Virus genome (UHGV): UHGV-1369766
Direction: 5' to 3' (one strand)
Origin: a virus
DNA: 38,287 nt
The position numbers and the translations under genes were made by a program. This document shows, piece after piece, positions 27,370 to 38,115 of this stretch (position 1 is the stretch's first letter; the number at the start of each line of letters is the position of its first letter). Under the pieces are notes generated by a model. The model had not been told where the DNA came from and did not search any database. It worked only from the letters and a program-made list of their open reading frames with translations.

Positions 27370-28788
27370 ATGCCGATTCAGCAACTTCCGCTTATGAAAG
27401 GTGTCGGCAAAGACTTTCGAAACGCCGACTATATCGACTATCTGCCAGTGAATATGCTGGCTACACCAAAAGAAATCCTTAACAGCAGCGGATATCTTCG
27501 CTCATTCCCTGGCATTGCCAAACGTTCTGATGTGAACGGTATATCGCGCGGCGTCGAGTACAACATGGCGCAGAGTGCTGTATATCGCGTGTGTGGGGGC
27601 AAGCTGTATAAGGGCGAAAGCGAAGTCGGTGATGTTGCCGGAAGTGGTCGTGTATCAATGGCGCATGGTCGGACATCTCAGGCTGTAGGCGTTAATGGTC
27701 AACTGGTCGAGTATCGCTATGATGGCACGGTTAAAACCGTCTCAAACTGGCCTACTGATAGCGGATTCACTCAGTATGAGTTAGGTTCAGTCCGCGACAT
27801 TACACGCTTACGTGGGCGTTATGCGTGGTCAAAAGACGGCACGGATTCATGGTTTATCACTGACCTTGAAGACGAATCGCATCCTGACCGTTACAGCGCA
27901 CAATATCGCGCAGAATCGCAGCCGGACGGTATCCTCGGCATCGGAACATGGCGAGACTTCATCGTCTGCTTTGGTTCATCGACGATTGAATATTTTTCCC
28001 TGACTGGGGCAACCACCGTTGGTGCCGCTTTGTATGTCGCACAGCCATCACTGATGGTGCAGAAAGGCATTGCCGGGACTTACTGCAAAACGCCATTCGC
28101 TGATTCTTATGCGTTCATCAGCAATCCGGCAACAGGTGCGCCGTCTGTGTACATCATCGGTTCCGGTCAGGTATCACCAATCGCCAGCGCGAGCATTGAG
28201 AAAATACTACGCTCCTACACTGCTGATGAACTGGCTGATGGCGTGATGGAGTCTCTGCGATTTGATGCGCATGAGTTGCTGATTATCCACCTTCCGCGCC
28301 ATGTTCTCGTGTACGACGCATCTTCAAGCGCCAATGGTCCGCAATGGTGTGTACTGAAAACAGGCCTGTATGACGATGTGTACCGCGCTATCGACTTCAT
28401 TTACGAAGGCAACCAAATAACGTGCGGCGATAAGCTTGAATCGATGACAGGGAAATTGCAGTTCGATATCAGCAGCCAGTACGACAAGCAACAGGAACAC
28501 CTGCTGTTTACTCCGTTGTTCAAAGCGGATAACGCCAGAGTGTTCGACCTTGAGGTTGAATCGTCAACTGGCGTTGCGCAGTACGCCGACCGCCTGTTCC
28601 TCTCTGCAACCACTGACGGAATCAATTACGGACGTGAGCAGATGATTGAGCAGAATGAACCGTTCGTTTACGACAAGCGCGTTTTGTGGAAGCGAGTCGG
28701 GCGCATCAGGAAAAATGTCGGCTTCAAATTGCGCGTTATCACGAAGTCACCTGTAACTCTGTCTGGCTGCCAGATAAGGATTGAGTAA
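27370..28788 (+). CDS. Tail accessory protein (P22 gp10-like)
   Basis: 472 aa, same length and order as P22 gp10; strong RBS. Confidence 0.8.
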
Positions 28789-29741
28789 TGGCTGATTCTA
28801 ATCTCAATGAGCCGGTAATCATCCAGGCTACGCGGCTCGATACATCAGTCCTTCCACGCAATATCTTCTCGCAGTCATATCTGCTGTACGTTATCGCACA
28901 GGGCACTGATGTTGGTAACGTGGCTAACAAAGCCAACGAGGCCGGACAGGGCGCTTATGATGCACAGGTCAGGAACGATGAGCAGGATGTCACCCTTGCA
29001 GACCATGAATCCAGAATTGAAGCTGCTGAAGCAACTCTCATCAATCATGAACATAGAATTGCAGCAGCGGAAAGCACTCTTGCAGATCATGAAACAAGGA
29101 TTACGGCTGCTGAAACAGAACTGGCTGATCACGAGACGCGAATTGCTGCCAATGAATCTGAGTTAGCAAACCATGATGCGCGCATAACTCAGAATACAAC
29201 CGATATCGACGCACTTGATACCAGGCTCACAGCGGCAGAGGGAAGTATTTCGACGCTACAAAGCACAGTTGGTGATCACTCAACAAGAATATCTGCGCTT
29301 GAGTATGCCACCACGCGCAAGAAATCAGAGGTTGTTTACTCAGGGGTATCGGTAACAATTCCGACAGCGCCTACCAACCTTGTTAGCCTGCTGAAAACGC
29401 TCACGCCGTCATCCGGCACGTTGGCACCATTCTTCGACACCGTTAACAACAAGATGGTTGTGTTCAACGAGAACAAAACCTTGTTCTTCAAGCTGTCGAT
29501 CGTCGGGACGTGGCCCAGCGGAACCGCCAACAGGTCAATGCAGCTAACATTTTCCGGTTCTGTTCCTGACACGTTGGTAAGCAGTCGCAACTCGGCGACA
29601 ACAACCGATAACATCTTGTTAGCTACGTTCTTCAGCGTGGATAAAGACGGATTTCTTGCCACAAATGGCAGTACGTTAACCATCCAGTCAAATGGTGCGG
29701 CGTTTACTGCCACAACCATCAAGATAATCGCGGAGCAGTAA
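28788..29741 (+). CDS. Tail needle protein (P22 gp26-like) with extended C-terminal domain
   Basis: N-terminal ~60 aa ([43 protein letters not shown]...[16 protein letters not shown]) parallels P22 gp26; followed by heptad-like ADHE(S/T)RI.AAE repeats; 317 aa versus ~233 aa for P22 gp26. Confidence 0.85.
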
Positions 29742-30196
29742 TGATTCAGTTCAAACCAACGCGAAACATCGACCTGATCGAAGCAGTCGGAAATCACCCT
29801 GACATTATTGCCGGAAGCAACAACGGTGATGGATACGACTACAAACCTGATTGCCGTTACTTTGAGGTGAACGTGCACGGGCAGTTCGGCGGCATTGTTT
29901 ACTATCAGGAGATTCAGCCGCTGACATTCGATTGCCACGCCATGTACCTGCCAGAGATTCGCGGCTTCAGCAAGGAAATCGGGCTGGCGTTCTGGCGATA
30001 CATTCTGACTAACACCACCGTTCAGTGCGTCACATCGTTCGCCGCACGCAAATTCCGCCACGGGCAGATTTACTGCGCAATGATTGGCCTTAAGCGTGTC
30101 GGAACTATCAAGAAATACTTTAAAGGCGTGGATGACGTGACGTTTTACAGCGCCACACGCGAAGAACTAATCGACTTCCTGAATCACGGGAGATAG
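29741..30196 (+). CDS. P22 gp14-like head/ejection-associated protein
   Basis: 151 aa; gene order after the needle matches the P22 gene 14 position; start overlaps the upstream stop. Confidence 0.65.
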   Translation: MIQFKPTRNIDLIEAVGNHPDIIAGSNNGDGYDYKPDCRYFEVNVHGQFGGIVYYQEIQPLTFDCHAMYLPEIRGFSKEIGLAFWRYILTNTTVQCVTSFAARKFRHGQIYCAMIGLKRVGTIKKYFKGVDDVTFYSATREELIDFLNHGR

Positions 30197-34376: not shown

Positions 34377-34862
34377 TTATCTGATGTTACTGCTACTGTT
34401 GCATGTGACTGTATTTCCAAACCCTGAATTGCAGTTTGTGTAAGTGTCAACTCGTGTTGGATAGGGTTGAGTTATAACAGGCTGTCTCGCTTTTTGCTCG
34501 ATCGCTTGCATTGTGTTTACAGCCTGATAATTCAATAAAGCCTGCTGGAATGCTTGGCTTTGTGCTATTTGTTGGGCTTGTTCTTGGCTTTGTAATTGAA
34601 CATAAAGATTCTGAAGCTCAAGTCTTGCCTGTGCGTCACTTATCTTGCCTTCATCGACACCTTGCCCGAGCATCTTTGCAGCAAGGACATACAACTTAGG
34701 TGTTGGTGCTGATGCCATGCGTGAGTCGTTCTTCACACTGGCATCAAGGCAATTAGCCATATCGCTAAGCTTTTGATAGCGTTGTTCGCAACTTGCTTGA
34801 TAGTCACTTACTTTTGCGCATCCAACCAGCAGAAGCGGGATAATTAACAGTGATTTTTTCAT
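34377..34862 (-). CDS. Predicted lipoprotein (moron; candidate superinfection-exclusion or lysogenic-conversion factor)
   Basis: 161 aa from the ATG at 34860-34862 (AAGGAGAG RBS); signal peptide with lipobox MKKSLLIIPLLLVGC; Gln-rich mature region; minus strand, AT-rich, in the sieA/immI-equivalent slot between ejection genes and tailspike. Confidence 0.65.
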   Translation of the reverse strand: MKKSLLIIPLLLVGCAKVSDYQASCEQRYQKLSDMANCLDASVKNDSRMASAPTPKLYVLAAKMLGQGVDEGKISDAQARLELQNLYVQLQSQEQAQQIAQSQAFQQALLNYQAVNTMQAIEQKARQPVITQPYPTRVDTYTNCNSGFGNTVTCNSSSNIR

Positions 34863-34932
34863 ATGGTTAACTCTCCTTAGTTTTTCACAGGATATCATGA
34901 AGGCAATGCCATTTTAGCCGGAAACTAGATTT

Positions 34933-35334: not shown

Positions 35335-37383
35335 ATGACTAATACCAATTACTTGGTCTCTATGCCGTCCACTCCTTTTTCGGCGCCACGAGCATTTAAA
35401 TCAGTGGCGAATGGGAAAATCTATATCGGAAACCCTGACACTGACCCGGTAAATCCTGCCAACCAAATCCCGGTATATATCGTTAATGAGGATGGCTCCG
35501 AGGTTCAGGTTTCACAGCCAATCATCATTAACGCCGGCGGCTTCCCGGTCTATAACGGCCAGATTATGAAGTTCATCACCAAACAGAACTTCAGTATGGC
35601 GGTTTATGATGCGTATGGAGCACAGCAGTTTTATTGGCCTGATTTATCAGAAATTGACCCATCTGCAATCATAGCCATGCTTTCGACTAGCGAAGGATCT
35701 GGAATGATTGGATGGGCGCGAAATTATTCTTGCGAGCTTGCAGCTACTGTTTCCGTATTTCTATCTGCACAAAAGATTAATTTATGGGAATATCGACATC
35801 TGGCGCTCGATACTATTGTTGATGGGGCTGAAGTCGTTGACTGGACACCCGCCATGATTCAGGCGCTGGTTGATGGTGCAAAATATAAGCGGCAGGTTTA
35901 TGCACCAGGCGGGAGATATTACTTTCAGAAAATGCCTGAGTTTGTAAATTTGGATTCCTCCGGTTCAACAACAAACATGTCCATGTATTCGCTGGTTGGT
36001 GACGGACACGATAAAACTATTTTCTGGACAGACAGTCTGGTTGGCAAGGAAATGCATTTCAGTACATGCCGCTTTTATTTTGATAAATTTAGTGTGCAGC
36101 GCGTGCTACAGGGGGATGATGCCGCATACCGGGATAGCAAGATACCCCTCATGCAGCTTGGACGCAGTACTGACATCTCTGCGGCCAGGCTCGGTTATAT
36201 GGGGGATGTACGCTTCAACGGCAGTCCGTGGGGTCTGAACATAGAGCACTGCTGGGACTCAATTTTCCAGGATGTCATTGTCCATAATTTCCAGACATCA
36301 GGCATTCGCATAGGCATGCATGATGTAGACAACAGTAATAACCTGTTGTTTATCAGAACACATATTGAAAGCTGTCAGTATAAAGGTGAAAACCTGTGTC
36401 GCGCCTTTGCTGATATGTCATATAAGACTGGTTCGCGGGTAAACCATAACATCACCCTCATTCAGCCGCATATTGAGCCTGTTAATCTGCGTTGCCATAT
36501 TTTTTATTCATCCTATGGAAAAAATATCAAAGTCATCAATCCGGCATTCAACCGAAACAATGGCTCCGTGGATAAAGGGTTATACCTCGACCCTTCTCTC
36601 GCTGCGCCAGCGGTGTACTCGTCGGATGGTGTCAACATCCACATTGATGGTGGTCAGATTCAGCATATCGGGCCACGCAGTGACACCGTTGCTCCCCTGT
36701 TTAAGTTTGTTGGTACGCATAAAGGTTGGCGGTGTGACAGCTACATTGATACCGGGAAGGAGACTTCACGCACTGATTTACTGTCTTCAGTTGACGTTTC
36801 AAGAAGCAATAATGGGTTACGTGAAATTTCATTTAAGGGAGCGACAGTCAACTCATTTACCTCGATGAGCTCTGTAGGCGACAGACTGAGAGTGGCTCCT
36901 TTAAATGACCTGCAAAAAGTATTCGATCTGGTTGCAGAAACCTTCATCCCACCGGGGGAAACGAACACTATCGCACGGATTATTGCGATGTATTCCAACA
37001 CGCAGGATTTATCCACTCCCCAGCAAAAGGCGTGGGATATCACCAGTGCCGGACATGCATCATTTAAGGCGTTGCGCGGTCAGCAGTACATCATTCAGGC
37101 CGGGGCAGTGGCGACGGTTAACGTAGGTGTCGGGGCACTGGAGCGGCGCGGAACTTATCTGATTAGCGGGGCGGAAAACAATAACCAACTTTTTGCGATG
37201 TTCTTTAATGTTCCAGGACAGGCTCCCAGTGAAATTAAAACTGGCTCCAGCGTTAATTTATCAAGAGTGCAACCTGATGCATCTGTCACCGGCAAGCTGT
37301 GTGTGTATCAGAATAATCAATATATCAATCTTGAAAACAGAACCGCATCCGCGGTGACTGTTAACGTCAATTTTTTTGCGTGA
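35335..37383 (+). CDS. Tailspike protein: P22-like N-terminal head-binding domain fused to a divergent receptor-binding domain
   Basis: First ~110 aa (…[47 protein letters not shown]…MAVYDA…) parallel the P22 gp9 N-terminus as recalled; the remaining ~570 aa do not. Confidence 0.9.
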
Positions 37384-37630: not shown

Positions 37631-37722
37631 ATACTTGTTTTTCAGATGGCTATTCCTGTCGATTCAAGCTGGTATAGCCATCACTTCAATTCACCTGATT
37701 GTCATCAGGCTAGGTGGATATT

Positions 37723-38115
37723 ATGGATTATATTGGTTTCGATGTAATTTTAATCTGGTATGCTGGGGTAGGTTTCTTTTTATGGACTGTCGCCCAGATT
37801 ATCAGGGCGGGTGAAACAAATGGAGTATTCAATAATATTGCATGCCTGTTGCTGTTTGTTATCGCATGGCCGAAGATAATGTGGACACTTTGCTGCCTTA
37901 TTGTAAAGAGACTTTTTGATGTTGATCATCAATTATTATCAGAAAGCAGAGGTGTCAAGCGAGGCGGCGGGACGGAGCTTGCCACGCTGAGAGGAAGGTC
38001 GCTGATTACCGAAGATGGTGAAGCGATCGAGGGTGAAGCCTTGGACGATGTTAGCGTCATCGGGGTCGTGACATTTACTATCTGCGATGTCCGCGGGGAC
38101 AATACCGTTGTTTAG
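37723..38115 (+). CDS. Hypothetical protein with hydrophobic N-terminal half (extent uncertain)
   Basis: ATG at 37723 with AGGTGG RBS; AT-rich hydrophobic first half, then a compositionally different GC-richer tail that may not be coding in this frame. Confidence 0.3.
   Translation: MDYIGFDVILIWYAGVGFFLWTVAQIIRAGETNGVFNNIACLLLFVIAWPKIMWTLCCLIVKRLFDVDHQLLSESRGVKRGGGTELATLRGRSLITEDGEAIEGEALDDVSVIGVVTFTICDVRGDNTVV

Follow-up and report, generated by a model that had tools for sequence, protein, structure and literature searches.

The window analysed here, a 38,287-nucleotide stretch of viral DNA (UHGV virus genome UHGV-1369766), carries on its plus strand a tail needle gene that is the orthologue of P22 gene 26, Sf6 gene 9 and HS1 EcHS_A0316. 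The feature at 28975-29741 that drew attention to the locus falls within one uninterrupted plus-strand open reading frame of the ORF list, 28788..29741. The gene therefore begins at 28788, and position 28975, where the original prediction had placed its start, is codon 63. The needle gene occupies its usual place in a P22-like virion module (gp10, needle, gp14, gp7, gp20, gp16), and the gene order is equal in Sf6, HS1 and HK620:

27370..28788, plus strand: gp10 tail hub ("packaged DNA stabilization protein"), upstream neighbour; PF11134, E = 2e-299
28788..29741, plus strand: tail needle gene; single ORF, 317 aa plus stop codon
29741..30196, plus strand: gp14-like DUF2824 protein, downstream neighbour; PF11039
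30199-30891: gp7 ejection-protein gene; PF25688
30901-32289: gp20 ejection-protein gene; PF16928
32289-34286: gp16-type DNA transfer protein; PHROG 770

The needle gene is coupled to both of its neighbours through TAATG stop/start overlaps in the sequence, the gp10 stop codon overlapping the needle start codon at 28786-28790 and the needle stop codon overlapping the start codon of the gp14-like gene at 29739-29743. Elsewhere in the window are an integrase, a CI-like repressor, O-like and DnaB-like replication genes, and Ant. Extensive parts of the window are matched at 94-97% identity by P22-like phages, among them E212, CUS-3, IME10 and Kapi1. Taken together with the genes of the virion module, these matches identify the window as a P22-like (Lederbergvirus-type) temperate phage of E. 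coli.

The protein is recognized by families specific to tail needles. PF16532 (Phage_tail_NK, Sf6-type phage tail needle knob) matches along its whole profile at aa 136-317 (E = 2.5e-108, 359.9 bits against a cut-off of 27), PHROG 1030 ("tail needle knob") matches at 8e-137, and PHROG 1219 ("tail needle protein") matches aa 1-111 at 1e-59. Along with the neighbouring genes and 99% identity to the needle of the HS1 prophage, these matches bear out the claim that the locus encodes a tail needle. We consider it close to certain that the gene specifies the tail needle of a P22-like temperate E. coli phage, of the Sf6/HS1 needle-with-knob kind and in the long, 16-heptad HS1 allele; none of the observations speaks against this identification. 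Judged by its sequence, the product is an Sf6-type tail needle knob protein, with the knob homologous to residues 140-282 of Sf6 gp9, the plug domain (residues 1-60), the shaft, the L-glutamate residues and the gene position of that class; it has no C-terminal tip homologous to residues 141-233 of gp26, the tip found in the P22 gp26-type class.

Two sets of labels point elsewhere. The other Pfam matches to the needle protein, all below their cut-offs, are to coiled-coil families that include MscS_porin, ATG16 and crescentin, and the JGI/IMG name for the exact protein is "predicted nucleic acid-binding Zn-ribbon protein". Both the Zn-ribbon label and the sub-cut-off matches are mis-annotations driven by the coiled coil.

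The exact needle sequence is already present in NCBI, IMG and ENA on 20 contigs, belongs to a cluster of 1,430 members and bears the NCBI name "tail needle knob protein". A full-length match is carried by 164 of 5,426 complete E. coli genomes, while ~700 further complete genomes of this species carry a shorter Sf6-type allele or a knob-only remnant; the same architecture is likewise annotated for the phages Gally, JEP4 and Sf6. The gene, its three-domain architecture, the 16-heptad shaft and the atomic structure of the knob have all been published for the 99%-identical HS1 prophage protein. The needle gene is thus an ordinary, already annotated member of a known family, and as a discovery it matters little. 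Many genomes of E. coli O157:H7 and its relatives match only nt 507-952 of the query, the knob half, and yet are annotated "tail needle knob protein"; such partial matches are consistent with the small remnants of P22-like prophages that Leavitt et al. (PMC3741392) mention.

Along the gene, the following elements can be delimited:

28788..28991, plus strand: N-terminal gp26-type plug domain, aa 1-68 (alignment to needle structures)
28911..29312, plus strand: shaft helix, aa 42-175 (AlphaFold2 monomer model)
28995..29204, plus strand: five tandem 42-nt (14-aa, two-heptad) units of the type L-A-D/N-H-E-x-R-I-x-A-A-E-x-x
29205..29303, plus strand: degenerate continuation of the 14-aa periodicity, aa 140-172, with the heptad phase kept; joiner between shaft and knob
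29307..29738, plus strand: C-terminal Sf6-type knob, aa 174-317 (matches to 4k6b and 3rwn)

The N-terminus of the needle aligns from residue 1 to the needle chains of P22, HK620 and Sf6 (2poh, 3c9i, 5bu5 and 8eap; E = 1e-42 to 1e-48), and in the PDB search the alignment to the needle structures of these phages covers residues 1-139. Residues 1-68 are almost invariant across five aligned needles. They include the NxxQD motif (N63, Q66 and D67; nt 28974-28988), which coordinates Ca2+ in P22 gp26 (PMC13580157).

In the shaft, the register listing follows a continuous heptad pattern from ~aa 49 to 171. Position a is L, I or V, and position d is His six times (H73, H87, H101, H115, H129 and H164), in alternation with Ala or Asn. 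The AlphaFold2 model, computed as a monomer with 25 homologues and used for secondary structure only, has a single helix at 42-175 (pLDDT 91-98 over aa 61-160; 40-46 over the N-terminal 40 residues), after which comes a beta-rich domain with strands at 179-316.

That domain is the knob, which in the crystal structures is a trimeric beta-sandwich of TNF-like fold. Its identity to the crystallised knob of phage HS1 (PDB 4k6b) is complete over residues 166-317, and over residues 165-317 it differs from the Sf6 knob (3rwn) at two positions, one of which lies inside the knob (A305 here, Ser in Sf6). The L-glutamate-binding residues E181, K235, S283 and D285 (HS1 numbering, residue list from PMC3741392) are all present. 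The extended C-terminal domain, proposed at the outset as a possible distal knob, is thus confirmed by the PF16532 match and by the identity to 4k6b. Its size had been misjudged: the needle was said to continue ~150 residues beyond P22 gp26, but at 317 aa against 233 aa it is only 84 residues longer. The figure of ~150 matches the part that follows the shaft (146 aa), which replaces residues 140-233 of gp26 and is not an addition to them.

Comparison with described needles places the protein next to that of HS1. Leavitt et al. (2013, PMC3741392) reported an HS1 needle of 317 codons whose helical core, predicted to be ~210 Å long, comprises 16 heptads; the needles of Sf6 and P22 have 11. They found the N-terminal domain of HS1 to be 98% identical to that of Sf6, its knob (codons 174-317) to be 99% identical to the Sf6 knob, and the Sf6 shaft to be only 67% identical to the HS1 shaft. 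The HS1 knob is a trimer with a TNF-like fold that binds three L-glutamate molecules through E181, K235, S283 and D285, and the tip domains of the P22 type and the Sf6/HS1 type have completely different folds (PMC3741392). Likewise 317 aa long, the needle encoded by the prophage HS1 in E. coli HS (EcHS_A0316, WP_000785558.1) is 99% identical to the needle in the window, with an identical knob (166-317), an equal 16-heptad shaft built on the same five 14-aa units, and matching gene neighbours. Relative to HS1, the N-terminal domain differs by E8V and the shaft by D100E, A107D and T137A, and there is no structural or architectural difference.

Needles from other P22-like phages diverge in the shaft or at the tip. 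Sf6 gp9, from a Shigella phage (282 aa, knob structure 3rwn), is 92% identical and has the same plug domain and gene order, but its shaft is 35 residues (5 heptads) shorter. In P22 gp26 and HK620 gp26 (233 aa; 2poh, 3c9i and 5bu5), homology to the needle in the window covers the plug domain and the initial stretch of the coiled coil, and the NxxQD motif, His at d positions 73 and 87, the genome position and the plug function are shared as well. The shaft of gp26 is shorter, however, at 11 heptads, and its C-terminal tip is unrelated, the structure alignments ending at query residue 139. Overall identity to the knob-less HK620 needle (233 aa) is 49%, and the C-terminal parts of the HK620 and Dewey needles do not align meaningfully with that of the window.

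The tandem repeats lie where they had been predicted, as five 42-nt units at 28995-29204 followed by three more degenerate ones up to 29303. Tandem Repeats Finder reports a period of 42 at 28991-29093 (2.5 copies, 70% matches, score 102), and a repeat search recovered a family of 31-nt copies that follow one another at intervals of 42, 42 and 42 nt. The nucleotide identity measured at lag 42 is 0.60, compared with 0.31 ± 0.036 in codon shuffles, and amino-acid identity at lag 14 is 0.61; in neither case did any of 10,000 shuffles reach so high a value. At lag 21 the nucleotide identity is weak (0.42). The period of the DNA repeat is therefore 42 nt, or two heptads, and not one heptad.

The repeats had further been described as tandem at the DNA level. 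The lag-42 identity agrees with that description, but the nucleotide repeat does not exceed what follows from the protein repeat. Units 1-4 have 20-31 of 42 nucleotides in common (48-74% identity) and 8-11 of 14 residues, and where the residues agree the codon coincides 31 times, whereas local codon usage predicts 28.5 such coincidences. Since codon sharing is at the level of chance, the nucleotide repeat is what the protein repeat alone would give; on the same ground we rejected a recent DNA duplication within this gene, and with it the description as a DNA-level repeat. Exact duplications of recent date do occur in a rare relative. The tandem repeat is the sequence signature of a coiled coil, built from units of 14 residues (two heptads) in which a is L/I and d alternates between His and Ala. 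In sum, the observation that led to this analysis is real and was slightly mis-described, as regards where the gene starts, the period of the repeat and how much longer the protein is than gp26.

Repeat number was then compared across relatives, using the 120 best of 2,523 homologues. The length is 317 plus a multiple of 7 in 108 of the 120, and the lengths found are 254, 268, 282, 289, 296, 303, 310, 317, 331, 338 and 345 aa, with steps that are more commonly 14 or 28 residues than 7. The ends of the protein stay constant: the N-terminal domain is 68 aa in nearly all length variants and the C-terminal part is 146 aa, while the shaft segment between them varies from 40 to 131 aa. The ladder is made up of two lineages:

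HS1-type lineage: 268, 289, 303, 317, 331 and 345 aa, differing by whole 14- or 28-residue units
Sf6-type lineage: 254, 282, 310 and 338 aa, with 0, 1, 2 or 3 copies of the 28-residue block VSDHETRIAQNESD-IASLDTRVQSLESQ
Sf6-type lineage: 296 aa, with one additional 14-residue unit

The one entry of 324 aa owes its length to seven extra residues at the N-terminus, its shaft being no longer than that of the 317-aa form. The 12 out-of-step homologues are truncated entries, proteins with indels in the N-terminal domain, or four singletons in which the shaft is out of heptad phase (P0006, P0050, P0054 and P0055); the latter may be defective genes or sequencing errors.

On the count used in the literature, in which 317 aa corresponds to 16 heptads, the ladder extends from ~7 to 20 heptads. 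It is wider than the published range of 11-16 heptads, a tidy but minor addition. The comparison thus returned a heptad-phased ladder with constant ends, and the view of the repeats as a site of length variation holds, relatives of 254 to 345 aa having gained or lost whole units. The earlier interpretation was largely right about gene identity and length variation; its size comparison was wrong, and a receptor role is not supported.

The junctions of three variants can be read directly in their DNA, and the events are clean. In the 345-aa gene, units 1-2 are duplicated exactly and in tandem (84 nt), the 303-aa gene has a 42-nt deletion with its junction inside a common AGAATTG, and the 289-aa gene has an 84-nt deletion with its junction at a common CTTGCAGA. 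The longest stretches in common at the junctions are 7-8 nt. The 345-aa variant (locus L005, positions 1501-2538; GCA_026334955.1, contig DAKBED010000006.1) has the longest shaft seen, ~20 heptads; it comes from a single contig, which leaves some room for an assembly artefact in that case.

Two lengths dominate, with 3,620 members in the 282-aa cluster and 1,430 in the 317-aa cluster. Among IMG/VR phage contigs, taken as the best matches to 317-, 282-, 254- and 303-aa queries, 100 encode a needle of 282 aa, 84 one of 317 aa, one a needle of 254 aa and none a needle of 303 aa. The scans with the 254- and 303-aa queries likewise returned almost only the 282- and 317-aa classes, with one 254-aa locus and no 303-aa locus. 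The rarer lengths were drawn from the protein collection and from the contigs encoding those proteins.

Together with published work on close homologues, these results suggest how the needle would be built and would act. Three chains would assemble into a thin trimeric fibre, the trimer state being that reported in the literature. The N-terminal 60-68 residues would enter the channel of the gp10 tail hub as a plug that retains the packaged DNA in the head, a role described for needles of this family; in Sf6, the hexameric tail hub is plugged by a quasi-sixfold bundle of hairpins that the N-terminus of the needle forms (Li et al. 2022, PMC9728967). Residues ~42 to 175 would form a continuous three-stranded coiled coil of ~200 Å, and residues 174-317, by analogy with the published knobs, a TNF-like trimeric knob at the far tip that binds three L-glutamate molecules. 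Upon infection the needle would be released and DNA ejection would follow, with the tip domain tuning the rate of ejection and not the host range, as in published experiments. The trimer, the plug and the role in ejection are expected for this needle from its close homologues (99%-identical HS1, Sf6 and P22).

The similarity between units would now and then permit slippage, or recombination out of register, by which whole 42- or 84-nt blocks are gained or lost. Since only changes that keep the heptad phase would persist, natural needles would form a ladder in which the shaft varies in length and the plug and knob do not change. We infer both the recombination mechanism and the selection for heptad phase, the former from the junction sequences.

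The ladder might also be functionally meaningful, with the phase-preserving gain and loss of 14- or 28-residue modules tuning the projection of the knob past the tailspikes, fibre stability or DNA-release kinetics. In that case selection would maintain two optima, at 11 and 16 heptads, and rarer lengths would keep arising. We regard this reading as possible and on balance unlikely. One form of it, co-adaptation of needle length and tailspike length, was examined in IMG/VR P22-like contigs. The tailspike of the window and the two needle classes compared were as follows:

35335-37383, plus strand: tailspike, 682 aa, with a P22-type head-binding domain (PF09008) at residues 3-130
317-aa needle class: 33 tailspike types, 476-823 aa, median 683 aa
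282-aa needle class: 56 tailspike types, 444-899 aa, median 653 aa

Over these 89 types, needle length class showed no association with tailspike length (Mann-Whitney p = 0.20) in a crude test that considers length only, applies no phylogenetic correction and leaves room for effects on ejection kinetics or stability. Needles of 282 aa and of 317 aa have four tailspike types in common. The tailspike test therefore gives no support to length co-adaptation. In the tailspike of the window itself, Pfam and PHROG family matches are confined to residues 3-130, and the receptor-binding body (aa 131-682) had no PDB sequence match at E <= 0.01; the body may have an uncharacterised glycan specificity.

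The tailspikes also bear on the idea that the knob is a receptor-binding domain that determines host range, like the adenovirus or PRD1 fibre knobs it resembles, so that the needle would act as an adhesin. The knob does sit at the most distal point of the virion (PMC3741392, PMC9728967), and Sf6 requires the secondary receptors OmpA and OmpC, whose partner on the virion is left unsettled in PMC9728967. Several pieces of evidence nevertheless argue against this role: (i) Salmonella is infected efficiently by a chimeric P22 that bears the HS1 knob (PMC3741392). (ii) The C-terminal domain is dispensable in the laboratory, and a foldon can stand in for it (PMC3741392). (iii) Mutations of the L-glutamate site are without phenotype (PMC3741392). 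(iv) Knob sequences are nearly invariant, diverging by at most 4.9% (PMC3741392). (v) Needles 96-100% identical to that of the window are combined with at least 33 tailspike types, and the 282-aa and 317-aa classes overlap in four types. A near-invariant knob that accompanies many receptor specificities argues against the knob as the determinant of host range. Changes at the tip alter only kinetics, with slower K+ release and an effect on DNA delivery, and Leavitt et al. concluded that what the needle controls is DNA-delivery kinetics and not host specificity (PMC3741392). We consider an adhesin role for the needle distinctly improbable, and the receptor contact first suggested for the knob is not supported by the experiments on the chimera and on the dispensable domain.

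A different account of the length variants would make the repeat tract a contingency locus, in which DNA repeats are kept similar so that slippage rapidly yields needle-length variants within a population. Whole-unit variants in both the HS1-type lineage (268/289/303/317/331/345 aa) and the Sf6-type lineage (254/282/296/310/338 aa), with junctions in short common sequences, are what such a locus would produce. The units of this gene, however, are only 48-74% identical in DNA, with codon sharing at chance (31 vs 28.5), and the sequence shared at junctions amounts to 7-8 nt at most. The dominance of the 282- and 317-aa lengths, both in clusters (3,620 and 1,430) and in IMG/VR contigs (100 and 84, with one of 254 aa), together with the rarity of the others, fits rare, sporadic events and not a high-rate switch. 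We give a contingency locus very little credence. The original expectation that the repeats mark a site of length variation stands, whereas the proneness to DNA slippage that it implied is weakened by the divergence of the units at synonymous sites and by the prevalence of two lengths.

There is next to no chance that the C-terminal part is a separate downstream ORF joined to the needle by a frameshift or sequencing error, the outcome named in advance as a refutation, as a single 317-aa frame runs from 28788 to 29741, hundreds of relatives have the same architecture (at full length in the 164 complete E. coli genomes, and also in Gally, JEP4 and Sf6), the Pfam knob model crosses the junction (aa 136-317) and the crystal constructs include shaft residues.

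With the needle read as a plug, a heptad-phased shaft and an Sf6-type knob, the natural length series in both lineages offers test material for the relation of coiled-coil length to fibre stability and DNA-ejection kinetics in P22-like phages. The ladder may also be of interest to groups that use gp26-type fibres as engineering scaffolds.

Five smaller ORFs lie over the needle gene or further downstream in the window:

28875-29132, minus strand: 85 aa, overlapping the needle gene across the repeat tract
28909-29166, plus strand: 85 aa, overlapping the needle gene across the repeat tract
29336-30061, minus strand: 241 aa, antisense, across the knob and the next gene
34377-34898, minus strand: 172 aa, between the gp16-type DNA transfer gene and the tailspike; PHROG 6067 ("unknown function"), 2e-110
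37714-38115, plus strand: 133 aa, near the right end of the window; UmuD-like C-terminal match, PHROG 3469, 4e-19, aa 82-131 only

We took the three overlapping ORFs to be by-products of a repetitive, compositionally biased coding sequence; the strong family matches came from the needle frame. The 172-aa ORF had no Pfam match. At its site, between the gp16-type gene and the tailspike, P22-like phages carry lysogenic-conversion or exclusion genes. The 133-aa ORF is possibly a truncated gene, or a gene flanking the prophage.
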